A DNA stretch of 64,000 bases from Escherichia coli. Lineage in GTDB: Bacteria > Pseudomonadota > Gammaproteobacteria > Enterobacterales > Enterobacteriaceae. The number at the start of each line of letters is the position of its first letter. Position 1 is the stretch's first letter. Under the pieces are notes generated by a model. It saw only the letters and a list, made by a program, of their open reading frames with translations, made no database searches and was not told the origin of the DNA. This document shows, in pieces, positions 5,148 through 20,414 of the stretch. Position numbers and translations under genes: made by a program. The stretch lies in the NCBI RefSeq assembly GCF_002854065.1, contig NZ_CP024147.1. One strand, 5' to 3'.

Positions 5148-5173
5148 TCAGGCGGCTCTGCCGCCTGATTGTT
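5148..5173 (+). terminator. possible intrinsic terminator after ydiK (GC stem caggcggc/gccgcctg, weak T tract)
   Basis: Inverted repeat read directly 8 bp after ydiK stop. Confidence 0.4.
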
Positions 5174-5325: not shown

Positions 5326-5430
5326 ACGGTTATAAATCAACATATTGATTTATAAGCATGGAAATCCCCTGAGTGAAACAACGAATTGCTGTGTGTAGTC
5401 TTTGCCCATCTCCCACGATGGGCTTTTTTT
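5326..5430 (+). ncRNA. rprA: RprA small regulatory RNA (Hfq-dependent activator of rpoS translation)
   Basis: Sequence ACGGTTATAAATCAACATATTGATTTATAAGCATGGAAATCCCCTGAGTGAAACAACGAATTGCTGTGTGTAGTCTTTGCCCATCTCCCACGATGGGCTTTTTTT matches RprA as I recall it, ending in hairpin plus T8 terminator. Confidence 0.85.
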
Positions 5431-5568
5431 TAACATTTTTCCGCTTCGCTACCTCGCCCCTCACTCTTTCCAATAATGTTGCACAAGATACTGTGACTCT
5501 CTTCAAGCCGTCAGCAGGCTGATAATGTTATTTATATTTTATTGTTTATTTCATGCAGCCATTACACG

Positions 5569-5925
5569 ATGAACGCTTATGAACTCCAGGCACTCCGCCA
5601 TATTTTTGCCATGACTATTGATGAATGCGCGACCTGGATTGCCCAGACCGGTGACAGTGAAAGCTGGCGTCAGTGGGAAAATGGCAAATGCGCCATTCCT
5701 GATCGTGTAGTCGAGCAACTGTTGGCTATGCGTCAGCAACGAAAAAAACATCTTCATGCCATTATAGAGAAAATAAATAACCGCATCGGCAACAACACCA
5801 TGCGTTTTTTCCCCGACTTAACCGCGTTTCAACGTGTCTACCCGGATGGCAATTTTATTGACTGGAAGATCTATCAATCGGTAGCCGCTGAATTATATGC
5901 ACACGATCTGGAGCGGCTTTGTTAA
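5569..5925 (+). CDS. ydiL: uncharacterised protein YdiL (118 aa)
   Basis: Track ORF 5542..5925 (TTG start) trimmed to ATG at 5569 (MNAYELQ...). Confidence 0.7.
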   Translation: MNAYELQALRHIFAMTIDECATWIAQTGDSESWRQWENGKCAIPDRVVEQLLAMRQQRKKHLHAIIEKINNRIGNNTMRFFPDLTAFQRVYPDGNFIDWKIYQSVAAELYAHDLERLC

Positions 5926-6024
5926 TTTCTCCACAAAAAGGAATTGTCGTTGTTACAACAATAATGAACGGATACTGACACAAAATCGCTACACTTTTTA
6001 AAGCACCTTTGCTAAGTAGAACCT

Positions 6025-7239: not shown

Positions 7240-7465
7240 TGCAATATTCTTTTCAGGTCATGCAAGATCTTACGGATAAATAACTCTTTCTGCGCTAACT
7301 AAGGAAAATCGCGATCAAAAACAAACTATGACATGCAATATTCCTGGAAACATAAACTTTATGCCATGTACCCAGGGAAAATCATCTTCAGTATAGTAAT
7401 TATGTAAACCGTCGGAGAACAATACGTACGGTAACGAAATAATCTTTCAGCAAGGAGCTGTGAAA

Positions 7466-8731
7466 ATGTCTCAAAATAAGGCTTTCAGCACGCCATTTAT
7501 CCTGGCTGTTCTTTGTATTTACTTCAGCTACTTCCTGCACGGCATTAGTGTTATTACGCTTGCCCAAAATATGTCATCTCTGGCGGAAAAGTTTTCCACT
7601 GACAACGCGGGCATTGCCTACTTAATTTCCGGTATCGGTTTGGGGCGATTGATCAGTATTTTATTCTTCGGTGTGATCTCCGATAAGTTTGGTCGTCGGG
7701 CGGTGATATTAATGGCAGTAATAATGTATCTGCTATTCTTCTTTGGTATTCCCGCTTGCCCGAATTTAACTCTCGCCTACGGTCTGGCAGTGTGCGTAGG
7801 TATCGCTAACTCAGCGCTGGATACGGGTGGCTACCCCGCGCTCATGGAATGCTTTCCGAAAGCCTCTGGTTCGGCGGTCATACTGGTTAAAGCGATGGTG
7901 TCATTCGGGCAAATGTTCTACCCAATGCTGGTGAGCTATATGTTGCTCAATAATATCTGGTACGGCTATGGGCTGATTATTCCGGGTATTCTGTTTGTAC
8001 TGATCACGCTGATGCTGTTGAAAAGCAAATTCCCCAGCCAGTTGGTGGACGCCAGCGTAGCTAATGAATTACCGCAAATGAACAGCAAACCGTTAGTCTG
8101 GCTGGAAGGTGTTTCATCGGTACTGTTCGGTGTAGTCGCATTCTCGACCTTTTATGTGATTGTGGTGTGGATGCCCAAATATGCGATGGCTTTTGCTGGT
8201 ATGTCAGAAGCTGAGGCATTAAAAACCATCTCTTATTACAGTATGGGCTCGTTGGTCTGTGTCTTTATTTTTGCCGCACTACTGAAAAAAATGGTCCGGC
8301 CCATCTGGGCTAATGTATTTAACTCTGCACTGGCAACAATAACAGCAGCCATTATCTACCTGTACCCTTCTCCACTGGTGTGTAATGCCGGCGCCTTTGT
8401 TATCGGTTTCTCAGCAGCTGGCGGCATTTTACAGCTCGGTGTTTCGGTCATGTCAGAGTTTTTCCCAAAAAGCAAAGCCAAAGTCACCAGTATTTATATG
8501 ATGATGGGTGGACTGGCTAACTTTGTTATTCCGCTGATTACCGGTTATCTGTCGAACATCGGCCTGCAATATATCATTGTTCTCGATTTTACTTTCGCGC
8601 TGCTGGCCCTGATTACCGCAATTATTGTTTTTATCCGCTATTACCGCGTTTTTATTATTCCTGAGAATGATGTGCGGTTTGGCGAGCGCAAATTTAGCAC
8701 CCGGTTAAACACAATTAAGCATAGAGGTTAA
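7466..8731 (+). CDS. ydiN: MFS transporter (paralog of ydiM)
   Basis: Track ORF 7460..8731 (GTG start); ATG at 7466 preferred; AGGAG RBS upstream. Confidence 0.85.
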
Positions 8732-8742
8732 AGGAGTTAATT

Positions 8743-9609
8743 ATGGATGTTACCGCAAAATACGAATTGATTGGGTTGATGGCTTATCCTATCCGCCACA
8801 GTTTATCGCCTGAAATGCAGAATAAAGCCTTAGAAAAAGCGGGATTGCCATTTACCTATATGGCCTTCGAAGTGGATAACGATAGCTTTCCCGGAGCAAT
8901 TGAAGGATTAAAAGCTCTAAAAATGCGCGGAACTGGTGTATCAATGCCGAACAAACAACTGGCGTGTGAATATGTTGATGAATTAACGCCAGCAGCCAAA
9001 CTGGTGGGTGCCATCAACACCATCGTTAATGATGATGGCTACCTGCGCGGCTATAACACCGACGGCACGGGCCATATTCGCGCCATTAAAGAGAGCGGTT
9101 TTGATATCAAAGGCAAAACAATGGTGCTGTTAGGGGCCGGAGGTGCCTCAACGGCGATTGGCGCGCAGGGGGCAATTGAAGGTTTAAAAGAAATTAAACT
9201 CTTTAACCGTCGGGATGAGTTCTTCGATAAAGCCCTCGCCTTCGCGCAGCGGGTTAACGAAAACACCGATTGTGTCGTCACGGTTACCGATCTCGCCGAT
9301 CAGCAAGCCTTTGCTGAAGCCCTGGCTTTCGCCGACATTTTAACCAATGGCACAAAAGTGGGTATGAACCCCCTTGAGAATGAATCATTGGTTAATGATA
9401 TCAGTCTGTTACATCCGGGACTGCTGGTCACTGAATGCGTGTATAACCCGCATATGACGAAGTTATTGCAGCAGGCGCAACAAGCTGGTTGCAAAACGAT
9501 TGATGGATACGGCATGTTGTTGTGGCAAGGGGCTGAACAGTTCACGTTATGGACTGGCAAAGATTTCCCTCTGGAATATGTTAAACAGGTCATGGGGTTC
9601 GGTGCCTGA
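8743..9609 (+). CDS. ydiB: quinate/shikimate 5-dehydrogenase, NAD(P)-dependent
   Basis: 288-aa ORF; shikimate dehydrogenase family sequence; adjacent to aroD. Confidence 0.9.
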
Positions 9610-9639
9610 CAGGCTGACCGCGTGCAGAAAGGGTAAAAA

Positions 9640-10398
9640 ATGAAAACCGTAACTGTAAAAGATCTCGTCATTGGTGCGGGCGCACCTAAAATCATCGTCT
9701 CGCTGATGGCGAAAGATATCGCCCGCGTGAAATCCGAAGCTCTCGCCTATCGTGAAGCGGACTTTGATATTCTGGAATGGCGTGTGGACCACTTTGCCGA
9801 CCTCTCCAATGTGGAGTCTGTCATGGCGGCAGCAAAAATTCTCCGTGAAACCATGCCAGAAAAACCGCTGCTGTTTACCTTCCGCAGTGCCAAAGAAGGC
9901 GGCGAGCAGGCGATTTCCACCGAGGCTTATATTGCACTCAATCGTGCAGCCATCGACAGCGGCCTGGTTGATATGATCGATCTGGAGTTATTTACCGGCG
10001 ATGATCAGGTTAAAGAAACCGTCGCCTACGCCCACGCGCATGATGTGAAAGTTGTCATGTCCAACCATGACTTCCATAAAACGCCGGAAGCCGAAGAAAT
10101 CATTGCCCGTCTGCGCAAAATGCAATCCTTCGACGCCGATATTCCTAAGATTGCGCTGATGCCGCAAAGTACCAGCGATGTGCTGACGTTGCTTGCCGCG
10201 ACCCTGGAGATGCAGGAGCAGTATGCCGATCGTCCAATCATCACGATGTCAATGGCAAAAACTGGCGTAATTTCTCGTCTGGCTGGTGAAGTATTTGGCT
10301 CGGCGGCAACTTTTGGTGCGGTAAAAAAAGCCTCTGCGCCAGGGCAAATCTCGGTAAATGATTTGCGCACAGTATTAACTATTTTACATCAGGCATAA
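9640..10398 (+). CDS. aroD: 3-dehydroquinate dehydratase type I
   Basis: 252-aa ORF recognised as AroD. Confidence 0.95.
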
Positions 10399-10543
10399 GC
10401 AATAATATTTCGGCGGGAATATCCTCCCCCGCCGAACTAAAAAAAATATATTCAACCGTATTTAATAAAAATATTTCGTGAGTCTCTGTGCGCTAATTAT
10501 CCATCTGGCGTAGGGAAAATCACACCTGAATCAGGAATTAACA

Positions 10544-12139
10544 ATGAAACCTGTAAAACCACCTCGTATTAATGGACGAGTGCCGGTCCTGTCGGCACAG
10601 GAAGCGGTGAATTATATTCCCGACGAAGCAACACTTTGTGTGTTAGGCGCTGGCGGCGGTATTCTGGAAGCCACCACGTTAATTACTGCTCTTGCTGATA
10701 AATATAAACAGACTCAAACGCCACGTAATTTATCGATTATTAGTCCAACAGGGCTTGGCGATCGCGCCGACCGTGGTATTAGTCCGCTGGCGCAAGAAGG
10801 TCTGGTTAAATGGGCATTATGCGGTCACTGGGGACAATCGCCGCGTATTTCTGATCTCGCAGAACAAAATAAAATTATTGCTTATAACTATCCACAAGGT
10901 GTACTTACACAAACCTTACGCGCCGCCGCAGCCCACCAGCCTGGTATTATTAGTGATATTGGCATCGGGACATTTGTCGATCCACGCCAGCAAGGCGGCA
11001 AACTGAATGAAGTCACTAAAGAAGACCTGATTAAACTGGTCGAGTTTGATAACAAAGAATATCTCTATTACAAAGCGATTGCGCCAGATATCGCCTTCAT
11101 TCGCGCTACCACCTGCGACAGCGAAGGCTACGCCACTTTTGAAGATGAGGTGATGTATCTCGACGCATTGGTTATTGCCCAGGCGGTGCACAATAACGGC
11201 GGTATTGTGATGATGCAGGTGCAGAAAATGGTTAAGAAAGCCACGCTGCATCCTAAATCTGTCCGTATTCCGGGTTATCTGGTGGATATTGTGGTGGTCG
11301 ATCCGGATCAAACCCAACTGTATGGCGGTGCACCGGTTAACCGCTTTATTTCTGGTGACTTCACCCTTGATGACAGTACCAAACTTAGCCTGCCCCTAAA
11401 CCAACGTAAATTAGTTGCGCGGCGCGCATTATTCGAAATGCGTAAAGGCGCGGTGGGGAATGTCGGCGTCGGTATTGCTGACGGCATTGGCCTGGTCGCT
11501 CGGGAAGAAGGTTGTGCTGATGACTTTATTCTGACGGTAGAAACAGGTCCGATTGGCGGAATTACTTCACAGGGTATCGCCTTTGGCGCGAACGTGAATA
11601 CCCGCGCCATTCTGGATATGACGTCCCAGTTTGATTTTTATCACGGTGGTGGTCTGGATGTTTGTTATTTGAGTTTTGCTGAAGTCGACCAGCACGGTAA
11701 CGTCGGTGTGCATAAATTCAATGGTAAAATCATGGGCACTGGTGGATTTATTGATATCAGTGCCACTTCGAAGAAAATCGTTTTCTGCGGCACATTAACT
11801 GCGGGCAGTTTAAACACAGAAATTACCGACGGCAAATTAAATATCGTCCAGGAAGGACGGGTGAAGAAATTTATTCGGGAACTACCGGAAATTACTTTCA
11901 GCGGAAAAATCGCTCTCGAGCGAGGGCTGGATGTTCGTTATATCACTGAGCGCGCAGTATTCACGCTGAAAGAAGACGGCCTGCATTTAATCGAAATCGC
12001 CCCTGGCGTCGATTTACAAAAAGATATTCTCGACAAAATGGATTTCACCCCAGTAATTTCGCCAGAACTCAAACTGATGGACGAAAGATTATTTATCGAT
12101 GCGGCGATGGGTTTTGTCCTGCCTGAAGCGGCTCATTAA
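10544..12139 (+). CDS. ydiF: family I CoA-transferase (acetate/short-chain acyl-CoA transferase, fused alpha/beta)
   Basis: 531-aa ORF; synteny. Confidence 0.9.
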   Translation: MKPVKPPRINGRVPVLSAQEAVNYIPDEATLCVLGAGGGILEATTLITALADKYKQTQTPRNLSIISPTGLGDRADRGISPLAQEGLVKWALCGHWGQSPRISDLAEQNKIIAYNYPQGVLTQTLRAAAAHQPGIISDIGIGTFVDPRQQGGKLNEVTKEDLIKLVEFDNKEYLYYKAIAPDIAFIRATTCDSEGYATFEDEVMYLDALVIAQAVHNNGGIVMMQVQKMVKKATLHPKSVRIPGYLVDIVVVDPDQTQLYGGAPVNRFISGDFTLDDSTKLSLPLNQRKLVARRALFEMRKGAVGNVGVGIADGIGLVAREEGCADDFILTVETGPIGGITSQGIAFGANVNTRAILDMTSQFDFYHGGGLDVCYLSFAEVDQHGNVGVHKFNGKIMGTGGFIDISATSKKIVFCGTLTAGSLNTEITDGKLNIVQEGRVKKFIRELPEITFSGKIALERGLDVRYITERAVFTLKEDGLHLIEIAPGVDLQKDILDKMDFTPVISPELKLMDERLFIDAAMGFVLPEAAH

Positions 12140-12152
12140 CAGGAGTATCACG

Positions 12153-13304
12153 ATGGATTTTTCTTTAACTGAAGAACAAGAACTGCTGCTGGCCAGTATT
12201 CGCGAACTGATTACGACTAACTTTCCGGAAGAGTATTTCCGCACCTGCGATCAAAACGGGACATACCCGCGTGAATTTATGCGGGCACTGGCGGATAACG
12301 GTATTTCCATGCTTGGCGTGCCGGAAGAATTTGGTGGTATCCCTGCGGATTACGTCACCCAGATGCTGGCGCTGATGGAAGTGTCAAAATGCGGTGCTCC
12401 GGCATTTTTGATCACCAACGGTCAATGTATTCACAGTATGCGCCGTTTCGGTTCTGCAGAGCAGCTACGTAAAACGGCAGAAAGCACCCTGGAAACCGGC
12501 GACCCCGCCTATGCCCTGGCGTTGACGGAACCAGGTGCTGGCTCAGATAACAACAGCGCCACTACCACTTACACGCGTAAAAACGGCAAGGTTTACATCA
12601 ACGGACAGAAAACTTTTATTACCGGTGCGAAAGAGTACCCGTATATGCTGGTGCTGGCGCGCGATCCTGAACCGAAAGATCCCAAAAAAGCCTTCACCCT
12701 GTGGTGGGTCGACTCCAGTAAGCCCGGCATTAAGATTAACCCGCTGCATAAAATCGGCTGGCATATGCTCAGCACCTGCGAAGTCTATCTCGACAACGTG
12801 GAAGTTGAAGAGAGCGACATGGTGGGCGAAGAAGGAATGGGTTTCCTCAATGTGATGTACAACTTTGAGATGGAGCGCCTGATCAACGCCGCGCGCAGCA
12901 CCGGCTTTGCCGAGTGTGCCTTTGAAGATGCCGCCCGCTATGCCAACCAACGTATCGCTTTTGGTAAACCCATTGGTCATAACCAGATGATCCAGGAAAA
13001 ACTGGCGCTGATGGCGATTAAGATCGACAACATGCGCAACATGGTGCTGAAAGTAGCATGGCAAGCCGATCAGCATCAGTCACTGCGCACCAGCGCGGCG
13101 CTGGCAAAACTGTATTGCGCACGTACCGCAATGGAAGTCATTGATGATGCGATTCAAATCATGGGCGGTCTGGGCTATACCGATGAAGCGCGCGTCTCCC
13201 GCTTCTGGCGTGATGTCCGTTGTGAACGTATTGGCGGCGGTACAGACGAAATTATGATTTACGTAGCAGGTCGGCAAATCCTGAAAGACTATCAGAACAA
13301 ATAA
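12153..13304 (+). CDS. ydiO: acyl-CoA dehydrogenase family protein (383 aa)
   Basis: Track ORF 12099..13304 trimmed to ATG at 12153 (MDFSLTEEQ...) with AGGAG RBS. Confidence 0.9.
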   Translation: MDFSLTEEQELLLASIRELITTNFPEEYFRTCDQNGTYPREFMRALADNGISMLGVPEEFGGIPADYVTQMLALMEVSKCGAPAFLITNGQCIHSMRRFGSAEQLRKTAESTLETGDPAYALALTEPGAGSDNNSATTTYTRKNGKVYINGQKTFITGAKEYPYMLVLARDPEPKDPKKAFTLWWVDSSKPGIKINPLHKIGWHMLSTCEVYLDNVEVEESDMVGEEGMGFLNVMYNFEMERLINAARSTGFAECAFEDAARYANQRIAFGKPIGHNQMIQEKLALMAIKIDNMRNMVLKVAWQADQHQSLRTSAALAKLYCARTAMEVIDDAIQIMGGLGYTDEARVSRFWRDVRCERIGGGTDEIMIYVAGRQILKDYQNK

Positions 13305-13346
13305 TCTGCAGGCGGCGCAGCTTCTTAACAAACTGCGCCGCCAGAT

Positions 13347-14258
13347 TTACCCGGCAAGACTTACCGGTTGAGGAAATTCAGATAAGATTTCTTGTTCCGC
13401 AAAACAGTTTTTAAATTGCCTGCGGTAATCGCTGGGCGAACAACCGACATGGCGCAAAAACAGTTTGGCAAAGTGATCGACATTTTCATAACCCACACGC
13501 CAGGAGATCTCTGCCTGTGATAATTCAGTATTAGTGAGTAACCATTTCGCTTCCGTCATACGCCGTTGAATAACATAGTTAATAGGGGAAATACGATACT
13601 CTTTGGTAAATTCATGGCAAATATAACTGACGCTGGCACGAAATTTTTTCGATAACTGTTCTAAAGTGATTTTTTCGCGATAATTATTATTTAGATAGAA
13701 AAGAATATCTTTTATCAGAACATCTTTTTTAATATACCCCTGCTCCGAACGATAAGCATTTTTAAAGTTTTCGTAGTAAAGAATTGCTAATGTATAGGCA
13801 AATGCATCCCATAACGAAGATGTTTGGCTATTTTTACTTTGCGGCAAAATCACACTTAGCTCATTAAATAAGGTTTTAATGACTTCTTTTCCCTGCCCCG
13901 CGGCAATTACCGGACAAGAATGCGGTTGCAGTAGATGATTTTCCTCAGCCCCCTGAAACTGAAAGCCGTACAGCGCACAGGTACACGTCGTTGCCGGATC
14001 GTTAACGTCAGAGGCCACCGCATGCAGCCTGCCGCGTTCTATCACCACTATATCATCTGCATGCGCGACATATAACGAAGAATCGATGGTAAACCTTGCC
14101 ACCCCTTTCTTGACGTAAATCAGCTCGGTTTCATTGTCATGAACGTGATGTCCAGACTCCCATTTTGGATCATCGCTAAATGCAAAACGTGAAAGCCGTG
14201 GCGTTTTACCAGCGACAAACAGCGTTTCACTGGCATTATCAAAACAGCGTTGATACAT
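13347..14258 (-). CDS. ydiP: AraC/XylS-family transcriptional regulator
   Basis: 303-aa ORF with C-terminal AraC-type HTH; AT-rich. Confidence 0.85.
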   Translation of the reverse strand: MYQRCFDNASETLFVAGKTPRLSRFAFSDDPKWESGHHVHDNETELIYVKKGVARFTIDSSLYVAHADDIVVIERGRLHAVASDVNDPATTCTCALYGFQFQGAEENHLLQPHSCPVIAAGQGKEVIKTLFNELSVILPQSKNSQTSSLWDAFAYTLAILYYENFKNAYRSEQGYIKKDVLIKDILFYLNNNYREKITLEQLSKKFRASVSYICHEFTKEYRISPINYVIQRRMTEAKWLLTNTELSQAEISWRVGYENVDHFAKLFLRHVGCSPSDYRRQFKNCFAEQEILSEFPQPVSLAG

Positions 14259-14573
14259 GACAACCTCCCTATTCCATGAGCAAGCAAAAACAATATATGC
14301 CGGATAAAATACGGCGTGTATTGCGGTTATACAACCGCGTTTAGCGAGAGCTAAACAAGATTATTTACACTGAATGCAAGATTGTACGGTCATGGAATAA
14401 CTATATTGCCGCAAATTGCACTTTTGTTTTAGCGATCGCATTTTTTTTGCAAGATTGTTGGCAAGGAAAACAGCTTGCTCCGTCGAAAACCCCGCACCGC
14501 TATCGCACACTATTTTCAGGCCATTTTTACCTTCCATCGGAGATGGTTCCGTATGCGACTCACAGGAGAAATC

Positions 14574-15338
14574 ATGAAAATAATAACCTGCTTTAAGCTG
14601 GTGCCTGAAGAACAGGACATTGTTGTCACTCCAGAATACACCCTGAATTTCGACAATGCCGACGCCAAAATCAGCCAGTTCGATCTCAATGCCATTGAAG
14701 CTGCAAGCCAGCTTGCAACAGATGACGATGAGATAGCCGCGCTGACCGTTGGCGGCTCATTGTTGCAGAACTCGAAAGTGCGCAAAGACGTGCTATCCCG
14801 CGGGCCGCACAGCCTGTATATGGTGCAGGATGCACAACTTGAGCATGCACTGCCTCTCGATACCGCAAAAGCGCTGGCGGCAGCAGTTGAAAAGATCGGC
14901 TTCGATTTACTGATCTTTGGTGAAGGTTCCGGCGACCTTTATGCCCAGCAGGTTGGCTTGCTGGTCGGAGAAATTCTGCAACTTCCGGTGATTAATGCAG
15001 TGAGTGCTATTCAGCGTCAGGGCAATACACTGGTGATTGAACGCACGCTTGAAGATGACGTTGAAGTTATTGAACTCTCTGTTCCAGCCGTGCTCTGCGT
15101 CACCTCCGATATTAACGTGCCACGCATTCCTTCGATGAAAGCCATTCTCGGCGCGGGTAAAAAACCGGTAAATCAGTGGCAGGCAAGTGATATTGGCTGG
15201 AGCCAGAGCGCACCACTTGCTGAACTGACCGGCATTCGCGTACCGCCGCAAACAGAACGTAAGCACATCATTCTCGATAACGATTCGCCGGAGGCCATTG
15301 CCGAGCTGGCGGAACATCTGAAGAAAGCCCTGAACTGA
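14574..15338 (+). CDS. ydiQ: electron transfer flavoprotein beta subunit (FixA-like)
   Basis: Track ORF 14475..15338 trimmed to ATG 14574 (MKIITCFKLVPE...) with AGGAG RBS; 254 aa. Confidence 0.9.
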   Translation: MKIITCFKLVPEEQDIVVTPEYTLNFDNADAKISQFDLNAIEAASQLATDDDEIAALTVGGSLLQNSKVRKDVLSRGPHSLYMVQDAQLEHALPLDTAKALAAAVEKIGFDLLIFGEGSGDLYAQQVGLLVGEILQLPVINAVSAIQRQGNTLVIERTLEDDVEVIELSVPAVLCVTSDINVPRIPSMKAILGAGKKPVNQWQASDIGWSQSAPLAELTGIRVPPQTERKHIILDNDSPEAIAELAEHLKKALN

Positions 15339-15357
15339 AGCCTACGGAGAAGAAACG

Positions 15358-16296
15358 ATGAGTCAATTAAACAGCGTCTGGGTCTTTAGCGATAATCCTG
15401 AACGTTATGCTGAACTGTTTGGCGGCGCTCAGCAATGGGGCCAACAGGTGTATGCCATTGTACAAAATACCGACCAGGTGCAGACAGTTATGCCTTATGG
15501 TCCAAAATGTATTTATGTTCTTGAGCAAAACGACGCGCTGCAACGCACTGAAAATTACGCCGAAAGCATTGCTGCTCTGCTGAAAGATAAACACCCCGCT
15601 ATGTTGCTACTGGCCGCGACGAAACGTGGTAAAGCTCCGGCAGCACGGTTAAGTGTGCAACTGAATGCGGCGCTGGTGAACGATGCCACGGCGGTGGATA
15701 TTGTCGATGGTCACATTTGCGCCGAACACCGGATGTATGGCGGGTTAGCGTTCGCTCAGGAAAAGATCAACAGCTCGCTAGCGATCATTACCCTTGCACC
15801 CGGTGTTCAGGAACCGTGCACCAGTGATACCTCTCATCAGTGCCCGACAGAAACGGTACCTTATGTTGCTCCGCGTCATGAAATTCTCTGTCGCGAGCGC
15901 CGTGCGAAAGCGGCAAGCAGCGTGGACCTGAGCAAAGCAAAACGTGTGGTTGGCGTCGGTCGTGGTCTGGCAGCGCAGGATGACCTGAAAATGGTCCACG
16001 AACTGGCGGCGGTGCTGAATGCTGAAGTCGGCTGTTCACGTCCAATTGCCGAAGGCGAGAACTGGATGGAGCGTGAACGTTATATCGGTGTCTCCGGCGT
16101 GTTGCTGAAATCCGATCTCTACCTGACGCTGGGGATCTCCGGGCAGATCCAACATATGGTTGGCGGCAACGGCGCAAAAGTGATTGTCGCCATCAATAAA
16201 GATAAAAATGCGCCAATCTTCAACTATGCCGACTACGGTCTGGTGGGCGATATCTACAAAGTCGTCCCTACCCTGATTAGCCAGTTGAGCCGCTAA
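15358..16296 (+). CDS. ydiR: electron transfer flavoprotein alpha subunit (FixB-like)
   Basis: 312-aa ORF. Confidence 0.9.
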   Translation: MSQLNSVWVFSDNPERYAELFGGAQQWGQQVYAIVQNTDQVQTVMPYGPKCIYVLEQNDALQRTENYAESIAALLKDKHPAMLLLAATKRGKAPAARLSVQLNAALVNDATAVDIVDGHICAEHRMYGGLAFAQEKINSSLAIITLAPGVQEPCTSDTSHQCPTETVPYVAPRHEILCRERRAKAASSVDLSKAKRVVGVGRGLAAQDDLKMVHELAAVLNAEVGCSRPIAEGENWMERERYIGVSGVLLKSDLYLTLGISGQIQHMVGGNGAKVIVAINKDKNAPIFNYADYGLVGDIYKVVPTLISQLSR

Positions 16297-16351
16297 TTCC
16301 CCTTTCAACCACATCTCCCGCTGTAAACGCAGCGGGAAGGGAGCATAACGC

Positions 16352-17641
16352 ATGTCGGATGACAAATTTGATGCCATTGTGGTCGGTGCGGGCGTTGCTG
16401 GTAGCGTTGCCGCACTGGTCATGGCACGAGCCGGGCTGGATGTCCTGGTGATAGAACGCGGCGACAGTGCCGGATGTAAAAACATGACCGGCGGGCGTCT
16501 TTATGCCCACACACTTGAAGAGATTATTCCAGGCTTTGCAGCATCAGCGCCGGTAGAACGCAAGGTCACACGCGAGAAAATCTCCTTCTTAACCGAAGAG
16601 AGCGCCGTTACCCTCGATTTTCACCGCGAGCAACCAGATGTTCCGCAACACGCATCTTATACCGTATTGCGTAATCGTCTGGACCCGTGGTTGATGGAAC
16701 ATGCCGAGCAGGCGGGCGCACAGTTTATCCCGGGAGTTCGCGTCGATGCGCTGGTTCGTGAAGGAAACAAGGTCACTGGCGTCCAGGCTGGGGATGATAT
16801 TCTCGAAGCGAATGTGGTGATTCTGGCTGATGGCGTTAACTCGATGCTTGGCCGTTCGCTGGGAATGGTTCCCGCTTCCGATCCGCATCATTACGCTGTT
16901 GGTGTTAAAGAGGTTATTGGCCTCACACCAGAACAGATCAACGATCGCTTTAATATTACGGGCGAGGAAGGTGCCGCCTGGCTGTTTGCCGGTTCCCCTT
17001 CTGACGGCCTGATGGGTGGCGGATTCCTCTATACCAATAAGGATTCCATATCGTTGGGGCTGGTTTGTGGATTGGGTGATATCGCCCATGCGCAAAAAAG
17101 CGTGCCGCAAATGCTGGAAGATTTTAAACAACACCCCGCCATTCGCCCGCTGATTAGCGGCGGCAAGTTGCTTGAATATTCCGCGCATATGGTGCCGGAA
17201 GGCGGTCTGGCAATGGTGCCGCAACTGGTTAACGAGGGCGTGATGATCGTTGGTGACGCCGCAGGCTTCTGCCTGAATTTGGGTTTTACGGTCCGCGGCA
17301 TGGATTTAGCCATTGCATCGGCTCAGGCTGCCGCCACAACGGTGATCGCCGCCAAAGAACGCGCGGATTTCTCCGCCAGCAGTCTTGCGCAATACAAACG
17401 TGAGCTGGAACAAAGTTGTGTTATGCGCGATATGCAGCATTTTCGCAAGATCCCGACGCTGATGGAAAATCCGCGCCTGTTTAGTCAGTATCCGCGCATG
17501 GTCGCCGACATCATGAACGATATGTTCACCATTGACGGCAAACCAAACCAGCCGGTACGCAAAATGATCATGGGACACGCGAAGAAAATTGGGCTGATCA
17601 ACTTGCTGAAAGATGGCATTAAGGGAGCAACCGCGCTATGA
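16352..17641 (+). CDS. ydiS: FAD-dependent oxidoreductase, ETF-quinone oxidoreductase-like (FixC-like)
   Basis: 429-aa ORF with N-terminal GxGxxG dinucleotide motif (VVGAGVAGS). Confidence 0.9.
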   Translation: MSDDKFDAIVVGAGVAGSVAALVMARAGLDVLVIERGDSAGCKNMTGGRLYAHTLEEIIPGFAASAPVERKVTREKISFLTEESAVTLDFHREQPDVPQHASYTVLRNRLDPWLMEHAEQAGAQFIPGVRVDALVREGNKVTGVQAGDDILEANVVILADGVNSMLGRSLGMVPASDPHHYAVGVKEVIGLTPEQINDRFNITGEEGAAWLFAGSPSDGLMGGGFLYTNKDSISLGLVCGLGDIAHAQKSVPQMLEDFKQHPAIRPLISGGKLLEYSAHMVPEGGLAMVPQLVNEGVMIVGDAAGFCLNLGFTVRGMDLAIASAQAAATTVIAAKERADFSASSLAQYKRELEQSCVMRDMQHFRKIPTLMENPRLFSQYPRMVADIMNDMFTIDGKPNQPVRKMIMGHAKKIGLINLLKDGIKGATAL

Positions 17642-17931
17642 GCCAGAACGCTACGGTTAACGTCGACATCAAATTAGGCGTCAATAAATTCCATGTTGAT
17701 GAGGGCCACCCGCATATCATTTTGGCGGCAAATCCCGATATCAATGAATTCCGTAAATTAATGAAAGCCTGCCCTGCCGGACTTTATAAGCAGGATGATG
17801 CCGGCAACATTCATTTTGATTCCGCCGGTTGTCTGGAGTGCGGCACCTGTCGGGTGCTGTGCGGTAACACTATTCTCGAACAGTGGCAATATCCCGCAGG
17901 CACCTTCGGTATTGATTTTCGCTACGGCTAA
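17638..17931 (+). CDS. ydiT: ferredoxin-like protein (FixX-like)
   Basis: 97-aa ORF with Cys-rich C-terminus; 4-bp overlap with ydiS. Confidence 0.85.
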   Translation: MSQNATVNVDIKLGVNKFHVDEGHPHIILAANPDINEFRKLMKACPAGLYKQDDAGNIHFDSAGCLECGTCRVLCGNTILEQWQYPAGTFGIDFRYG

Positions 17932-17933
17932 TC

Positions 17934-19262
17934 ATGCATCCCACAGGCCCGCATCTCGGGCCTGATGTTCTGTTTCGAGAGTCCAAAATGAAAGTGACAT
18001 TAACGTTTAACGAACAACGTCGTGCGGCGTATCGTCAGCAAGGGCTATGGGGCGATGCTTCGCTGGCCGATTACTGGCAGCAGACCGCTCGTGCGATGCC
18101 AGACAAAATTGCCGTGGTCGATAATCATGGAGCATCGTACACCTATAGCGCGCTCGATCACGCCGCGAGCTGTCTGGCAAACTGGATGTTAGCGAAGGGT
18201 ATTGAATCAGGCGATCGCATCGCATTTCAACTGCCAGGCTGGTGTGAATTTACCGTTATCTATCTTGCCTGCCTGAAAATCGGTGCGGTTTCCGTACCGC
18301 TGTTGCCTTCCTGGCGGGAAGCAGAACTGGTATGGGTGCTTAATAAGTGTCAGGCAAAAATGTTCTTTGCACCGACGTTGTTTAAACAAACGCGTCCGGT
18401 AGATTTAATCCTGCCGCTGCAAAATCAGCTTCCACAACTACAACAAATTGTCGGCGTGGACAAACTGGCTCCCGCCACCTCTTCCCTCTCATTAAGTCAG
18501 ATTATCGCCGACAATACCCCACTGACCACGGCGATAACGACCCACGGCGATGAATTAGCCGCGGTGCTGTTTACCTCCGGAACCGAGGGCCTGCCAAAGG
18601 GCGTGATGCTTACGCATAACAATATTCTCGCCAGTGAGCGGGCTTATTGCGCGCGGCTGAATCTGACCTGGCAGGATGTCTTTATGATGCCTGCGCCACT
18701 CGGCCACGCAACGGGCTTTCTGCATGGCGTAACAGCACCATTTTTGATTGGTGCTCGCAGCGTGTTGTTAGATATTTTCACTCCTGATGCGTGTCTCGCG
18801 CTGCTTGAGCAGCAGCGTTGCACCTGTATGCTCGGCGCAACGCCGTTTGTCTATGATCTTTTGAATTTACTAGAGAAACAACCCGCAGACCTTTCAGCGC
18901 TGCGCTTCTTTCTTTGCGGCGGTACCACAATCCCCAAAAAAGTGGCGCGTGAATGCCAGCAGCGCGGCATTAAATTATTAAGTGTTTATGGTTCCACAGA
19001 AAGTTCGCCGCATGCGGTGGTGAATCTCGATGATCCTTTGTCGCGCTTTATGCACACCGATGGTTACGCTGCCGCAGGTGTAGAGATTAAAGTGGTCGAT
19101 GACGCACGCAAGACCTTACCGCCAGGTTGCGAAGGTGAAGAAGCCTCGCGTGGCCCCAATGTGTTTATGGGGTATTTTGATGAACCTGAATTAACCGCCC
19201 GAGCCCTGGATGAAGAAGGCTGGTATTACAGCGGCGATCTCTGCCGTATGGATGAAGCTGGC
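17934..19262 (+). pseudogene. fadK: 5' fragment of short-chain acyl-CoA synthetase fadK/ydiD, truncated by IS1 insertion (reading frame runs into IS1 and stops at 19287..19289)
   Basis: Track ORF 17934..19289; AMP-binding motif TSGTEGLPKG present; alternative start at 17988 (MKVTLTF). Confidence 0.85.
19254..19262. repeat. 9-bp target-site duplication (gaagctggc), left copy
   Basis: Identical 9-mer immediately flanks both IS1 ends. Confidence 0.85.
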
Positions 19263-19317
19263 GGTGATGCTGCCAACTTACTGATTTAGTGTATGATGGT
19301 GTTTTTGAGGTGCTCCA

Positions 19318-19593
19318 GTGGCTTCTGTTTCTATCAGCTGTCCCTCCTGTTCAGCTACTGACGGGGTGGTGCGTAACGGCAAAAGCACTGCCGGACATCA
19401 GCGCTATCTCTGCTCTCACTGCCGTAAAACATGGCAACTGCAGTTCACTTACACCGCTTCTCAACCCGGTACGCACCAGAAAATCATTGATATGGCCATG
19501 AATGGCGTTGGATGCCGGGCAACCGCCCGCATTATGGGCGTTGGCCTCAACACGATTTTCCGCCATTTAAAAAACTCAGGCCGCAGTCGGTAA
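19318..19593 (+). CDS. insA: IS1 InsA (transposition inhibitor / DNA-binding N-terminal part of transposase)
   Basis: 91-aa [40 protein letters not shown]...; GTG start. Confidence 0.9.
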
Positions 19594-20015
19594 CCTCGCG
19601 CATACAGCCGGGCAGTGACGTCATCGTCTGCGCGGAAATGGACGAACAGTGGGGATACGTCGGGGCTAAATCGCGCCAGCGCTGGCTGTTTTACGCGTAT
19701 GACAGGCTCCGGAAGACGGTTGTTGCGCACGTATTCGGTGAACGCACTATGGCGACGCTGGGGCGTCTTATGAGCCTGCTGTCACCCTTTGACGTGGTGA
19801 TATGGATGACGGATGGCTGGCCGCTGTATGAATCCCGCCTGAAGGGAAAGCTGCACGTAATCAGCAAGCGATATACGCAGCGAATTGAGCGGCATAACCT
19901 GAATCTGAGGCAGCACCTGGCACGGCTGGGACGGAAGTCGCTGTCGTTCTCAAAATCGGTGGAGCTGCATGACAAAGTCATCGGGCATTATCTGAACATA
20001 AAACACTATCAATAA
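19512..20015 (+). CDS. insB: IS1 InsB reading frame (expressed as InsAB' transposase by -1 frameshift)
   Basis: 167-aa ORF in the -1 frame relative to insA. Confidence 0.85.
19569..19575 (+). other. A6C slippery motif for programmed -1 ribosomal frameshift of IS1 transposase
   Basis: ttaaaaaactc read directly in the insA/insB overlap. Confidence 0.7.
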
Positions 20016-20030
20016 GTTGGAGTCATTACC

Positions 20031-20039
20031 GAAGCTGGC
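20031..20039. repeat. 9-bp target-site duplication (gaagctggc), right copy
   Basis: Identical to 19254..19262. Confidence 0.85.
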
Positions 20040-20414
20040 TATATAAAAATAACCGGGCGCAAGAAAGATATTATTGTCCGCGGCGGCGAAAATATTAGCA
20101 GCCGTGAAGTGGAAGATATTTTATTACAGCATCCTAAAATTCACGATGCTTGTGTGGTTGCAATGCCCGATGAACGCTTAGGTGAACGTTCATGCGCTTA
20201 TGTCGTGCTGAAAGCACCGCATCATTCATTATCGCTGGAAGATGTAGTGGCTTTTTTTAGCCGTAAACGGGTCGCAAAATATAAATACCCTGAACATATC
20301 GTGGTAATCGAAAAACTACCGCGCACTGCCTCAGGTAAAATACAAAAGTTTTTGTTAAGAAAAGATATTATGCGGCGATTAACGCAGGATGTCTGTGAAG
20401 AGATTGAATAAGTT
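20040..20414 (+). pseudogene. fadK: 3' fragment of fadK/ydiD (C-terminal domain of acyl-CoA synthetase)
   Basis: In frame with the 5' fragment once IS1 and one TSD copy are removed; track ORF 20109..20411 carries the C-terminal part. Confidence 0.85.

Follow-up and report, generated by a model that had tools for sequence, protein, structure and literature searches.

The ydiF-fadK cluster of Escherichia coli, here interrupted by IS1, probably belongs to a quinone-linked pathway for ring acids of plant origin

Introduction

Five proteins of the ydi locus, YdiO, YdiQ, YdiR, YdiS and YdiT, are paralogues of CaiA, FixA, FixB, FixC and FixX of the E. coli caiTABCDE/fixABCX system. Like ydi, cai/fix combines a transporter, a CoA-transferase and a priming CoA ligase with a dehydratase that forms the enoyl double bond, a reductase of the CaiA type and a FixABCX-type electron supply. 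CarABCDE of Acetobacterium woodii (6FAH), which acts on a plant-derived unsaturated acid in caffeate respiration, likewise joins a CoA-transferase and a priming ligase to an enoyl-CoA reductase of the ACAD type and an ETF. FixABCX of Azotobacter vinelandii and EtfABCX of Thermotoga maritima (7KOE) are bifurcating, quinone-linked, membrane-associated complexes with the four-subunit architecture of YdiQRST. In the mitochondrial-type system, electrons pass from an ACAD through ETF and FAD/[4Fe-4S] to quinone, the same path as is proposed below for ydi.

Syntrophus reportedly carries out an enoyl-CoA respiration in which quinol electrons reach an ETF through a membrane oxidoreductase and then an ACAD that reduces enoyl-CoA. 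Its substrates are said to include cyclohex-1-ene-1-carbonyl-CoA.

The ydi genes themselves have been assigned in the literature to fatty-acid use with fadK and fadIJ, and to butyrate use as ydiQRSTD in Salmonella.

Results

The region corresponds to a known E. coli cluster, ydiF-ydiO-ydiP-ydiQRST-fadK, in which IS1 interrupts fadK (Table 1). All of these genes were found at positions 10544-20411 of the window, the 64,000-nucleotide stretch that was analysed. The original prediction had named the same genes and ended the locus at 20414; the start and the gene content were correct, and the end lies 3 nt beyond the fadK stop at 20411. Pfam and NCBIfam agreed with every gene identity from ydiF to fadK. 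Compared with K-12, ydiN through ydiT and ppsA are unchanged in length, are uninterrupted by stops and differ by 1-7 amino acids each. The predicted AraC-type regulator, YdiP, is indeed encoded divergently within the locus, and its domains were recognized by Pfam. The ydiF-fadK locus is carried by 5339 of 5426 complete E. coli genomes.

Table 1. Features of the ydiN-fadK region, with positions numbered along the window
Feature	Position	Strand	Description
Operator-like TGCAAKAT direct repeats	7240..7341	+	Upstream of ydiN; at 7240, 7261 and 7334; spacings 21 bp and 73 bp
ydiN	7466..8731	+	MFS transporter; intact compared with K-12
ydiB	8743..9609	+	NAD(P)-dependent quinate/shikimate dehydrogenase; NF009390, 664.7 bits (cut-off 349)
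aroD	9640..10398	+	Type I 3-dehydroquinate dehydratase; TIGR01093, 293 bits
GC-rich inverted repeat	10409..10436	.	Between aroD and ydiF
ydiF	10544..12139	+	Family I (Pct-type) short-chain acyl-CoA:carboxylate CoA-transferase; Pfam CoA_trans
ydiO	12153..13304	+	CaiA-type acyl-CoA dehydrogenase/enoyl-CoA reductase
ydiP	13347..14258	-	AraC-family regulator; cupin sensor and HTH_18 domains (Pfam)
Operator-like direct repeats	14375..14455	+	TGCAAGATTGT; upstream of ydiQ; at 14375 and 14448, 73 bp apart
ydiQ	14574..15338	+	ETF small subunit, FixA paralogue
ydiR	15358..16296	+	ETF large subunit, FixB paralogue
ydiS	16352..17641	+	FixC/ETF-QO-like flavoprotein with quinone-binding domain
ydiT	17638..17931	+	FixX-like ferredoxin; cysteines for one [4Fe-4S] cluster
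fadK alternative start	17934	+	ORF from here stops 8 codons inside IS1
fadK 5' part	17988..19262	+	Codons 1-425 of 548 from the 17988 start
Target duplication (9 bp)	19254-19262 and 20031-20039		GAAGCTGGC; flanks IS1
IS1	19263..20030	+	768 bp; terminal repeat GGTGATGCTGCCAACTTACTGAT
fadK 3' remnant	20040..20411	+	AMP-binding_C domain

The inactivation of fadK by IS1, which had also been predicted, was confirmed by the complete element and its target duplication. In silico excision of IS1 and one copy of the duplication restored an intact fadK of 566 codons. The AMP-binding domain is the only domain encoded by the 5' part. The second-best NCBIfam match of FadK was cyclohexanecarboxylate-CoA ligase, and FadK activity is highest on C6-C8 acids (2022 review); both would fit the ring-acid role proposed below. 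Loss of fadK would remove the priming ligase and butyrate activation, and not necessarily the remaining pathway. The latter may survive because fadK is the last gene and YdiF takes CoA from common acyl-CoAs.

YdiF has the catalytic Glu333 and is nearly identical to the solved structure 2AHU (1187 bits). With FadK as the ATP-dependent priming ligase, it would load a small carboxylic acid onto CoA. YdiO scored 786.7 bits with NF008997, followed by the CaiA model at 452 bits, and is 48% identical to CaiA. Its residues E241, R242, G362 and G363 are invariant across 11 homologues; Glu241 is the candidate catalytic base, and Gly362 occupies the position of Glu376 in MCAD. YdiO matched 1egc_A, which we take to be the T255E/E376G double mutant of MCAD, 6.4 bits better than 1ege_A, presumably the wild type. 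Judged from these residues, YdiO is catalytically competent, and it would interconvert enoyl-CoA and acyl-CoA.

These two enzymes could also be seen as parts of a lactate/acrylate-type route or of general short-chain acyl-CoA housekeeping. YdiF would then be a propionate/lactate CoA-transferase feeding lactyl-CoA, for example to lysine lactylation, and YdiO with YdiQR would be an acryloyl-CoA or crotonyl-CoA reductase. YdiF is a member of the Pct family; in vitro it makes both acetyl-CoA and lactyl-CoA from acetoacetyl-CoA, and its over-expression raises lactylation (PMC9636275). YdiO, YdiQ and YdiR also match the clostridial AcrC, AcrB and AcrA models, but weakly and far under the cut-offs (e.g., 234 vs 640). 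Moreover, no lactoyl-CoA dehydratase was found in the ydi locus or any related locus, and the association with YdiB and AroD is left unexplained. We therefore consider this route very improbable.

YdiQRST had been predicted to parallel FixABCX, and this held, with identities of 57% (YdiQ-FixA), 43% (YdiR-FixB), 61% (YdiS-FixC) and 63% (YdiT-FixX). YdiO, YdiQ, YdiR and YdiS all passed their own equivalog or subfamily cut-offs in NCBIfam; their second matches were CaiA, FixA, FixB and FixC, of which only FixA and FixC were above their own cut-offs. YdiT matched FixX best, but its 144 bits fell short of the cut-off of 166. YdiS scored 973 bits with NF007450, was also matched by Pfam ETFQO_UQ-bd, and aligned with T. 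maritima EtfC (7koe_C) at 243 bits and with pig ETF-QO (2gmh) at 90 bits.

The original prediction had further implied that the module couples YdiO to low-potential carriers. If YdiQRST were a bifurcating complex of the FixABCX type, it would oxidise NADH and send the electrons down two branches, one to quinone or YdiO-bound enoyl-CoA and the other to a low-potential ferredoxin or flavodoxin. The homology to FixABCX and EtfABCX, including the YdiS-EtfC match, is consistent with this, as is the finding that, among solved structures, YdiQ and YdiR match bifurcating ETFs best (CarD/CarE, LctB/LctC and C. difficile EtfAB). In addition, ydiQRST and ydiO have been used in metabolic-engineering models of beta-oxidation reversal. 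The motifs of YdiQ and the cysteines of YdiT, however, did not support bifurcation. In YdiQ, D-L-Y-A-Q-Q replaces the DGDTAQ of bifurcating ETFs and ALPLDT replaces ADTWAT. The motif Thr, present in 100% of 216 bifurcating ETFs, is Ala, and the Gly and Asp are Leu and Tyr. Two contacts of the bifurcating FAD in the R. palustris small subunit, D93/T94, correspond to Leu/Pro in YdiQ, like the canonical ETF pattern. YdiQ lacks the canonical AMP "zipper" motif DDDxNQ as well. YdiT has Cys45, 65, 68 and 71 and an extra Cys75; it keeps the proximal-cluster set, and of the four cysteines that bind the distal [4Fe-4S] cluster in bifurcating EtfX three are missing. E. coli FixA and FixX depart from the bifurcating proteins in the same ways. 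Bifurcation by YdiQRST is, in our view, improbable.

A plain link to the quinone pool through YdiO, ETF and a split ETF-QO is more likely, from sequence, than low-potential coupling, because YdiQ is without the bifurcating-FAD residues and YdiT keeps the cysteines of one cluster. YdiQ retains the partner-recognition loop (PRIPSMKAIL, aligned to human PRYATLPNIM), and the electron-transfer FAD site is conserved in YdiR. YdiO would thus exchange electrons with the membrane quinone pool via the ETF YdiQR and then YdiS (FAD) and YdiT (one [4Fe-4S]), the latter two forming a split ETF:quinone oxidoreductase, with electron bifurcation probably playing no part.

The original prediction began the unit at ydiF. 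This was too narrow, because an association with the upstream genes ydiN, ydiB and aroD is kept in rearranged gene orders and an operator-like repeat is shared. The block ydiN-ydiB-aroD-ydiF-ydiO-ydiP-ydiQRST-fadK is syntenic in at least 10 Enterobacterales genera. Beyond the Enterobacterales, at least five gene orders were seen around YdiO orthologues, with a gene for a YdiB-type quinate/shikimate dehydrogenase, a type I dehydroquinase or both beside or within the cluster. Sutterella (Betaproteobacteria) has a rearranged cluster, fadK-ydiTSRQ divergent from ydiN-ydiB-aroD-ydiF-ydiO, with unlike flanks in two species. One locus (L056) has the dehydroquinase gene between the ETF-alpha and FixC genes. 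Another (L060) is a single nine-gene operon with the dehydrogenase and dehydroquinase between the ETF and FixCX genes, divergent from a YdiP-like AraC regulator (45% identity). A fifth gene order (L061), without FixCX, has such a regulator upstream. In Sutterella, L056, L060 and L061 the cluster starts with an orthologous MFS gene. The embedded dehydrogenases of L060, L061 and Sutterella pass the YdiB-specific NF009390 at 520-545 bits, and the cluster-embedded dehydroquinases retain the catalytic E86, H143 and K170. No dehydroquinase was found within the visible 15 kb around the YdiO orthologue of L059. More distant YdiO-like ACADs (62-68% identity) had no quinate/shikimate-gene neighbours and pair with family III CoA-transferases. 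This comparison of gene orders indicates that the ydi module and ydiN-ydiB-aroD work together.

The patterns TGCAAKAT-N13-TGCAAKAT and TGCAAKAT-N65-TGCAAKAT were searched for in 60 loci (about 1.1 Mb). Spaced pairs were confined to sites upstream of ydiN-like genes and to the ydiP-ydiQ spacer, Sutterella included; no pair was found upstream of ydiF in Enterobacterales. The repeats upstream of ydiQ are kept in Citrobacter, Kosakonia, Intestinirhabdus, Yersinia, Brenneria, Dickeya and Serratia. We propose that YdiP binds them, and that the ydi module and ydiN-ydiB-aroD probably form one regulon under its putative control. Against a joint unit, a hairpin and a 145-bp gap part aroD from ydiF in Enterobacterales; the inverted repeat there may act as a terminator or attenuator. 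E. coli also relies on aroD for its housekeeping biosynthetic dehydroquinase, and the position of the gene could reflect biosynthesis. In line with the proposed link, expression of ydiB, aroD and ydiN is induced together in a shikimate-accumulating strain.

Discussion

The main alternative is anaerobic beta-oxidation of short- and medium-chain fatty acids, butyrate especially, for which there is published genetic evidence that the original prediction had missed. After activation of the acid by FadK or YdiF, YdiO would oxidise acyl-CoA to enoyl-CoA. YdiQR and YdiST would hand the electrons to quinone, from which they would reach nitrate or another acceptor, and FadIJ, encoded elsewhere, would complete the cycle; ydiN-ydiB-aroD would be unrelated neighbours. 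According to reviews, this role was proposed (Campbell et al. 2003), a fadD fadK double mutant could not use fatty acids and FadK preferred C6-C8, anaerobic butyrate use in Salmonella required ydiQRSTD or ydiD, and the Salmonella ydiQRSTD operon was described as one for anaerobic butyrate beta-oxidation that is lost in S. Typhi. Furthermore, ydiFO, ydiQRST and fadHIJK decay jointly in extraintestinal Salmonella, and the best NCBIfam match of YdiF is staphylococcal FadX, at 388 bits and below the cut-off of 750. On the other hand, a 2022 review says of YdiQR in fatty-acid growth that "experimental evidence is lacking", and adds that transcriptomes contradict anaerobic induction of fadK and that neither FadR nor CRP is known as a fadK regulator. 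The ydiF-fadK locus has no hydratase, dehydrogenase or thiolase of the fatty-acid cycle. Also, beta-oxidation explains neither the YdiB-type dehydrogenase and dehydroquinase genes inside an ETF/FixCX operon of unrelated lineages nor the operator repeat in common with ydiN. Beta-oxidation as the function of the locus is possible but doubtful.

The original prediction was right to leave the substrate open; the same review calls YdiQR "of unknown function". A hydroaromatic acid appears the most likely substrate, because the module forms a conserved unit with ydiN, ydiB and aroD. With moderate confidence, we favor a single regulon in which a hydroaromatic acid is activated with CoA and its ring double bond is reduced by quinol electrons; both the substrate and the direction of electron flow are inferred from gene context alone. 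The genes would probably encode a quinone-linked route for ring acids that come from plants. YdiN is proposed to carry the hydroaromatic substrate or product, and quinate would be converted to 3-dehydroshikimate or shikimate through YdiB and AroD. In both products the carboxylate is conjugated to a C1=C2 double bond. YdiO would reduce the CoA ester of either one with quinol-derived electrons, YdiF would recycle the CoA, and the whole pathway would serve as an anaerobic electron sink, like carnitine or caffeate respiration. The E0' values of about -10 mV for crotonyl-CoA and about -70 mV for menaquinone make a menaquinol-driven reduction feasible. EcoCyc lists quinate as a dead-end metabolite, and in the literature searched we found no paper linking the ydi locus to hydroaromatic compounds.

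Compared with cai/fix, the Glu/Gly catalytic placement is common to YdiO and CaiA, whereas several other parts differ. YdiF belongs to family I (Pct-type) and CaiB to family III, and their 24% identity is not meaningful; the transporter is of the MFS type in ydi and BCCT in cai; the regulator is YdiP rather than CaiF. The proposed dehydration in ydi is by a type I dehydroquinase on the free acid, and that in cai by a crotonase on the CoA ester. Of the Car proteins, CarD matches YdiQ better than any other solved structure (86 bits), and CarC matches YdiO at 158 bits. Unlike ydi, CarCDE is soluble and bifurcating, with DGDTAQ in CarD and a ferredoxin domain on CarE, and it has no FixC/FixX-type quinone link. 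YdiT matches T. maritima EtfX at 57 bits. In contrast to FixABCX and EtfABCX, YdiQ is without contacts for the bifurcating FAD, and the ligands in YdiT suffice for a single [4Fe-4S] cluster instead of two. NADH oxidation or a ferredoxin role would not be expected of YdiQRST. The mitochondrial-type ETF-QO is split over two proteins in ydi, YdiQ has no AMP-site DDDxNQ, and the likely direction is reduction instead of oxidation. The assignment of YdiO and YdiQRST to fatty-acid use in the literature rests on the proximity of fadK and leaves the conserved embedding of the quinate/shikimate genes unaccounted for.

Lastly, the membrane oxidoreductase of the Syntrophus system is said to be of the DUF224 type, compared with the FixCX type in ydi.

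Results

Pfam and NCBIfam matches for each gene confirmed the identities predicted for the genes at 10544-20411, which are listed with the other features in the table. Gene order and orientation are those of K-12 ydiF-ydiO-ydiP-ydiQRST-fadK (b1694-b1701), between aroD and ppsA, and the DNA identity to K-12 outside IS1 is 98.2%. From ydiN through ydiT, and in ppsA, the genes are equal in length to those of K-12 MG1655, with 0 internal stops and 1-7 amino acid changes each. Almost all E. coli have the locus (5339 of 5426 complete genomes). YdiO matches NF008997 at 786.7 bits, and YdiO, YdiQ, YdiR, and YdiS all score above the cut-offs of their own NCBIfam equivalog or subfamily models. The runner-up models were CaiA, FixA, FixB, and FixC, and the cut-off was exceeded only for FixA and FixC. 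YdiT has no NCBIfam model of its own; its best match, FixX, reaches 144 bits and so falls short of the cut-off of 166.

Features of the ydi locus in the window and of related loci in other genomes and metagenomes
Feature	Sequence	Position	Strand	Description
TGCAAKAT repeats	window	7240, 7261, 7334	coding strand of downstream operon	5′ of ydiN
Inverted repeat	window	10409-10436		GC-rich, 11-bp stem
ydiF, ydiO, ydiQ, ydiR, ydiS, ydiT, fadK	window	within 10544-20411	plus	Pfam/NCBIfam
ydiP	window	within 10544-20411	minus	AraC-type; Pfam/NCBIfam
Longer ORF 5′ of ydiO	window	12099-12152		ATG at 12099
TGCAAKAT repeats	window	14375, 14448	coding strand of downstream operon	5′ of ydiQ
Longer ORF 5′ of ydiQ	window	14475-14573		TTG at 14475
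ydiR	window	15358-16296	plus	compared with K-12
Recurrent IS1 target	window	19254-20039		GA(A/G)GCTGGC in fadK
IS1	window	19263-20030	as fadK	768 bp; 9-bp duplication GAAGCTGGC on both sides
Recurrent IS1 target	L002	11101-11868		GA(A/G)GCTGGC in fadK
Recurrent IS1 target	L003	11101-11868		GA(A/G)GCTGGC in fadK
Recurrent IS1 target	L050	1605-2415		GA(A/G)GCTGGC in fadK
Rearranged locus	L056, metagenomic contig, 43% GC		one strand, gaps ≤117 bp	MFS, YdiF, YdiO, ETF-beta, ETF-alpha, type I dehydroquinase, FixC-like, FixX-like, FadK-like
Rearranged locus	L060, contig, 42% GC			YdiP-like AraC divergent from MFS, YdiF, YdiO, ETF-beta, ETF-alpha, YdiB-like, dehydroquinase, FixC-like, FixX-like
Rearranged locus	L061, fifth order			AraC, two MFS, YdiF, YdiO, ETF-beta, ETF-alpha, YdiB-like, dehydroquinase, then ketoreductase-family gene, MaoC dehydratase
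Genes in place of FixCX	L061	15197-17125		ApbA-family ketoreductase, MaoC-type dehydratase, glyoxalase-fold protein
Second, distinct module	L053, E. albertii-type island	4504-15054		AraC, family III CoA-transferase, MFS, ACAD; divergent YdiO-like ACAD (68%), ETF-beta, ETF-alpha, MFS, desulfoferrodoxin
Related module	L051, Desulfovibrio	7271-19772		family III CoA-transferase, MFS, YdiO-like ACAD, FixABCX-like genes, metallo-beta-lactamase-fold protein, CoA ligase; dCache chemoreceptor adjoins
Related module	L058, metagenomic relative	1181-17232		as L051

Longer open reading frames extend 5′ of the annotated starts of ydiO, where the extension overlaps the end of ydiF, and of ydiQ. The shorter starts were used because the NCBIfam alignments begin at residue 1 of the K-12-type starts. 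Compared to K-12, YdiR has 7 amino acid changes (including L94P and P140S) from 18 nucleotide differences and YdiO has 1 from 26. In all comparisons YdiR had the lowest conservation of any cluster protein, and its changes therefore probably reflect weak constraint and not decay.

The original prediction that IS1 inactivates fadK was borne out, as the element is present with its full 768 bp, terminal inverted repeats, insA and insB, and a 9-bp target duplication. The gene is broken after nucleotide 19262, and what remains is an N-terminal AMP-binding domain with 8 IS-encoded codons and a separate AMP-binding_C remnant. Removal of IS1 and one copy of the duplication in silico restored an intact 566-codon fadK frame; the insertion is, therefore, recent and clean. 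Only one IS1 end lies within the 64-kb window and, thus, the window looks like E. coli and not Shigella; a Shigella origin was ruled out by this and by the intact neighbouring genes. The effect of IS1 on the strain is the loss of fadK alone, and polarity is of no concern because fadK is the terminal gene. If FadK is the butyrate-activating enzyme, the strain would resemble the S. Typhi deletion in that single respect. The operons of L060 and L061, two loci fetched from other genomes or metagenomes, do not contain a FadK-like gene, which suggests that the ligase is dispensable for the core pathway.

A query spanning the IS1-fadK junction was covered over at least 80% by seven genomes. At least four other complete E. 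coli genomes, with single-piece matches (H17-H20), carry IS1 at the exact nucleotide and in the same orientation, and the same-site element in other genomes is annotated as IS1A-family. In the fetched loci L002 and L003 the target duplication on both sides is GAGGCTGGC, which tracks a local SNP, compared to GAAGCTGGC in the window. Their flanks are 1.3-2.2% divergent from those of the window, and 8-10 of the 768 IS1 positions are different. These differences in duplication, flanks, and element rule out common ancestry of the insertion in the window with those in L002 and L003; IS1 has entered this fadK hotspot independently in unrelated E. coli. Strain E. coli E69 has an inverted IS1 between the same fadK position and ydiO codon 57, with ydiO'-ydiP-ydiQRST-fadK' deleted. 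Further genomes (H16, H21, H23, and H27) have IS1 at other positions within fadK.

Orthologues of YdiO were scanned with one genome per species. Identities were 91-99% in Escherichia, Citrobacter, Kosakonia, Intestinirhabdus, Yersinia, Serratia, Dickeya, Brenneria, Prodigiosinella, and Symbiopectobacterium, and 80-84% in the betaproteobacterium Sutterella. The order ydiM-ydiN-ydiB-aroD-ydiF-ydiO-ydiP-ydiQRST-fadK is syntenic in all Enterobacterales with enough sequence; synteny inside one order, taken alone, is weak evidence. A rearranged block, with fadK-ydiT-ydiS-ydiR-ydiQ divergent from ydiN-ydiB-aroD-ydiF-ydiO, is found in two species of Sutterella and in a related metagenome scaffold; the outer flanks are unrelated between both species, and the GC content is shifted to 58-63%. 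Other rearranged orders are found in L056, L060, and L061. The dehydrogenases embedded in the clusters of L060, L061, and Sutterella score 520-545 bits with the YdiB-specific NCBIfam equivalog, whose cut-off is 349, and stay below the cut-offs of the AroE-type models, except that of L060, which is marginally above TIGR00507 (204.6 against 200.2 bits). The embedded dehydroquinases retain E86, H143, and K170. It is possible that aroD and ydiB are mere biosynthetic neighbours of the cluster, but this is hard to square with their embedding between ETF and FixCX genes in the low-GC lineages.

Quinate/shikimate genes were never found alongside the YdiO-like proteins of 62-68% identity in Desulfovibrio, the E. 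albertii island, and a metagenome. These proteins pair with family III CoA-transferases and MFS genes, and those of Desulfovibrio and the metagenome contig also have a metallo-beta-lactamase-fold gene beside them. Since the rearranged orthologue loci keep the quinate/shikimate genes and the 62-68% relatives are without them, the association is specific to the YdiO/YdiF orthogroup, and it outlasts at least four rearrangements. A 74% homologue of YdiO (P0027) stands alone in an unrelated context. The cluster boundary drawn in the original prediction was, according to the rearranged gene orders, too narrow; the unit extends to ydiN-ydiB-aroD.

Several other observations were made in the fetched loci. 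Between E. coli and Citrobacter, Kosakonia, Yersinia, Serratia, Dickeya, and Brenneria (L010-L048), YdiO is 91-97% identical in amino acids, YdiR 66-75%, and YdiP 62-84%. YdiO and YdiF appear to be under very strong constraint relative to their redox partners, as this comparison points to. The module in L053 lies between ung and yfiF and does not have intact FixCX, although a fragment 49% identical to YdiT is present. L051 and L058 look like the same modular design for another, sensed substrate. In Enterobacter sp. EA-1 (L049) and Candidatus Symbiopectobacterium (L035 and L036) the ydi tblastn matches are fragmentary or truncated, which suggests pseudogenisation of the locus in these lineages, parallel to the decay reported for extraintestinal Salmonella. 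The genes in place of FixCX in L061 hint that in some organisms the reduced ring is processed further by dehydration or keto-reduction.

Direct repeats of TGCAAKAT lie 5′ of both ydiN (spacings of 21 and 73 bp) and ydiQ (73 bp). Among the 60 fetched loci (~1.1 Mb), TGCAAKAT-N13-TGCAAKAT and TGCAAKAT-N65-TGCAAKAT occur only at the ydiN and ydiQ promoter positions, with matches in Escherichia, Citrobacter, Kosakonia, Intestinirhabdus, an Enterobacterales MAG (both promoters), and Sutterella. The single 11-mer TGCAAGATTGT was not significant by itself within the window; it is the spaced pairs and their exclusive location alone that carry weight. A spacing of 21 bp between direct repeats is typical of AraC-family operators. 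We propose YdiP as the candidate regulator that would bind these sites and co-regulate ydiN-ydiB-aroD with ydiQRST-fadK. Upstream of ydiF, no TGCAAKAT pair was found. The GC-rich inverted repeat there, directly 3′ of aroD and ahead of an A/T-rich stretch, could be a terminator or attenuator of read-through from ydiN-ydiB-aroD to ydiF-ydiO.

The parallel originally drawn between YdiQRST and FixABCX is right, given the paralogy (identities of 43-63%) and the functional logic common to both systems. Compared to the K-12 carnitine proteins, YdiQ is 57% identical to FixA, YdiR 43% to FixB, YdiS 61% to FixC, and YdiT 63% to FixX; YdiO is 48% identical to CaiA and FadK 32% to CaiC. Where MCAD and SCAD have their catalytic Glu ('YEGT'; MCAD-376), YdiO has Gly362 ('GGGT', within IGGGT), and at the position of MCAD Thr255 it has Glu241 ('FEMERL'). 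CaiA shares this placement (FDHERF and VSGGS), and neither residue varies among eleven homologues with identities as low as 48%. Over the same range YdiO scores 158.7 bits with the MCAD entry 1egc and 152.3 bits with 1ege, which we take to be the T255E/E376G double mutant and the wild type, respectively. The placement of the two residues, their invariance, and the higher score with 1egc make it plausible that YdiO has a catalytic base of the isovaleryl-CoA/long-chain ACAD type. Against solved structures, YdiO scored 163 bits with bifurcating Bcd (5ol2_C), 158 with CarC, and 202 with the best short-chain ACAD, 4rm7. Bcd and CarC thus resemble YdiO no more than ordinary short-chain ACADs do.

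Both a CoA-transferase, YdiF, and a priming ligase, the FadK disrupted here by IS1, are encoded in the locus. YdiF is virtually the same as the solved protein 2AHU (1187 bits), with Glu333 in place, and belongs to the Pct family; in vitro it formed acetyl-CoA and lactyl-CoA from acetoacetyl-CoA. A lactate/acrylate-type route is highly improbable, as no lactoyl-CoA dehydratase is present and the AcrABC models stayed below their cut-offs (YdiO 234 against 640, YdiQ 74 against 475, and YdiR 140 against 600 bits); the clostridial Pct-Lcd-AcrABC pathway was rejected for these reasons. According to a review, FadK is reportedly most active on C6-C8 acids. Its second NCBIfam match is a cyclohexanecarboxylate-CoA ligase, at 279 bits, far below the cut-off of that model.

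The coupling of YdiO to low-potential carriers, which had been predicted from the likeness to FixABCX, was not borne out as bifurcation, since YdiQ and YdiT fail three motif tests. The small-subunit 'zipper' is DGDTAQ in bifurcating ETFs, with Thr in 100% of 216, and DDDxNQ in canonical ETFs, where Asp and Asn are 98% conserved in group 1 (PMC8958531). In R. palustris, D93, T94, and T97 of the small subunit bind the bifurcating FAD (PMC6764259). In HMMER alignments, CarD, LctB, and C. difficile EtfB carry GRQAIDGDTAQVG and ADTWAT, and human and Paracoccus ETF-beta carry DDDCNQ or DNDMNA, and GPLQVA or EPLAVA. YdiQ carries GEGSGDLYAQQVG and ALPLDT, the latter resembling the canonical 'GPLQVA' pattern. 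Its residues 121-126 are DLYAQQ, identical in E. coli FixA, and fit neither DGDTAQ nor the canonical AMP-site motif DDDxNQ. The invariant zipper Thr and the D93/T94 pair are absent, and the equivalent of T97 alone is kept. T. maritima EtfX binds one [4Fe-4S] cluster distally, through C29, C33, and others, and a second proximally, through C61, C64, and others (PMC10734219). YdiT does not have equivalents of C29, C33, and C38, while C42, C61, C64, and C67 are kept as Cys45, 65, 68, and 71; only the ligands of the proximal cluster are, thus, retained. E. coli FixX has four cysteines in all.

Other parts of the electron chain are conserved. The electron-transfer FAD site of YdiR is in place (motifs GCSRP and GISGQIQH), and YdiS scores 243 bits with EtfC and 90 bits with pig ETF-QO and also matches the quinone-binding domain of ETF-QO. 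YdiQ keeps the partner-recognition loop, where residues 183-192, PRIPSMKAIL, align with human PRYATLPNIM and Met is at the anchor position, which we take to be the hydrophobic Leu195 of human beta. From these features together with the motif losses, we infer a simple reversible chain of YdiO, YdiQR, YdiT/YdiS, and quinone. A bifurcating FixABCX-type complex is very unlikely after the three failed motif tests, and a bifurcating ETF was rejected on the YdiQ and YdiT motifs. This corrects the expectation that YdiQRST and E. coli FixABCX bifurcate.

Discussion

We tentatively propose that ydiN-ydiB-aroD-ydiF-ydiO-ydiP-ydiQRST-fadK may be a single YdiP-controlled pathway of 'hydroaromatic respiration' in gut Proteobacteria (Escherichia, Salmonella, Citrobacter, Yersinia, Sutterella, and others), with the ring C=C of dietary quinate or shikimate as the terminal acceptor. 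The substrate and the direction of electron flow are what we infer from sequence and gene context. YdiN would import quinate or shikimate, YdiB would oxidize quinate to 3-dehydroquinate, and AroD would dehydrate this to 3-dehydroshikimate, making the C1=C2 bond conjugated with the carboxylate. YdiB may then reduce the 3-keto group to give shikimate, a second role that would account for its dual use of substrates and cofactors. With FadK priming the reaction, YdiF would form the CoA thioester, and YdiO would reduce the double bond with electrons passed from menaquinol through YdiS/YdiT and YdiQR. YdiF would hand the CoA to the next substrate molecule, and dihydroshikimate-type cyclohexane carboxylates would be excreted. 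The reductive direction is feasible, since the E0' of the enoyl-CoA couple lies near -10 mV and that of menaquinone near -70 mV.

The usual assignment of the locus, made in the literature since 2003, is anaerobic beta-oxidation, and Salmonella ydiQRSTD has been described as serving anaerobic butyrate utilisation and as lost in S. Typhi. This model has genetic support. However, a review called evidence on YdiQR lacking, found anaerobic induction of fadK contradicted by transcriptomes, and knew of no FadR or CRP control of fadK. Also, genes for enoyl-CoA hydratase, 3-hydroxyacyl-CoA dehydrogenase, and thiolase are absent from the locus, so that fadIJ elsewhere would be needed, and the conserved association with ydiN-ydiB-aroD and the shared repeat are left unexplained. 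We consider beta-oxidation or butyrate use as the role of the locus somewhat unlikely. Since the chain is close to equilibrium, butyryl-CoA oxidation towards a higher-potential quinone would also be possible, and this could reconcile the Salmonella butyrate data with hydroaromatic reduction.

Aerobic quinate/shikimate catabolism through protocatechuate (qui/qsu) was set aside. The qui/qsu family is defined by a dehydroshikimate dehydratase beside quinate dehydrogenase and dehydroquinase, and no gene for such a dehydratase was found in the ydiM-ppsA interval of the window or in the related loci.

Lactobacilli and gut microbiota are known to form dihydroshikimate and cyclohexane carboxylates from quinate and shikimate by reduction, which provides a biological precedent for the proposed chemistry. 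Consistent with the hydroaromatic reading, ydiB, aroD, and ydiN are co-induced in a shikimate-accumulating strain, and quinate is a dead-end metabolite in EcoCyc. Earlier work had already described the genes and their cai/fix paralogy and had noted that their function was unsettled. In the literature searched, which did not extend to subscription journals, we found no mention of a link to ydiN-ydiB-aroD, of the shared repeat, or of the non-bifurcating signature.

Although these are textbook 'y-genes' and an IS1 insertion is nothing unusual, the locus is a standing gap and YdiB an enzyme without a pathway. A y-ome paper lists ydiO among the genes with limited functional information, ydiO and ydiQRST have been used in engineered models of beta-oxidation reversal with their native role unproven, and loss of the operon has been linked to host adaptation in typhoidal Salmonella. 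If the hydroaromatic link is true, some ten E. coli genes would be given a coherent function, YdiP and TGCAAKAT would be a regulator-operator pair, and both YdiB and the dead-end metabolite quinate would have a physiological role. Enteric bacteria and Sutterella would have a new anaerobic electron acceptor, and a bacterial gene set would be identified behind the long-known microbial reduction of quinate and shikimate.

The closest known system is that for carnitine reduction, which needs FixAB according to a review. In both cai/fix and ydi, a transporter is combined with a CoA-transferase and a priming ligase, and a CaiA-type flavoenzyme with an electron chain of the FixABCX type. They differ in the CoA-transferase, as YdiF is of family I in contrast to the family III CaiB of the cai system.
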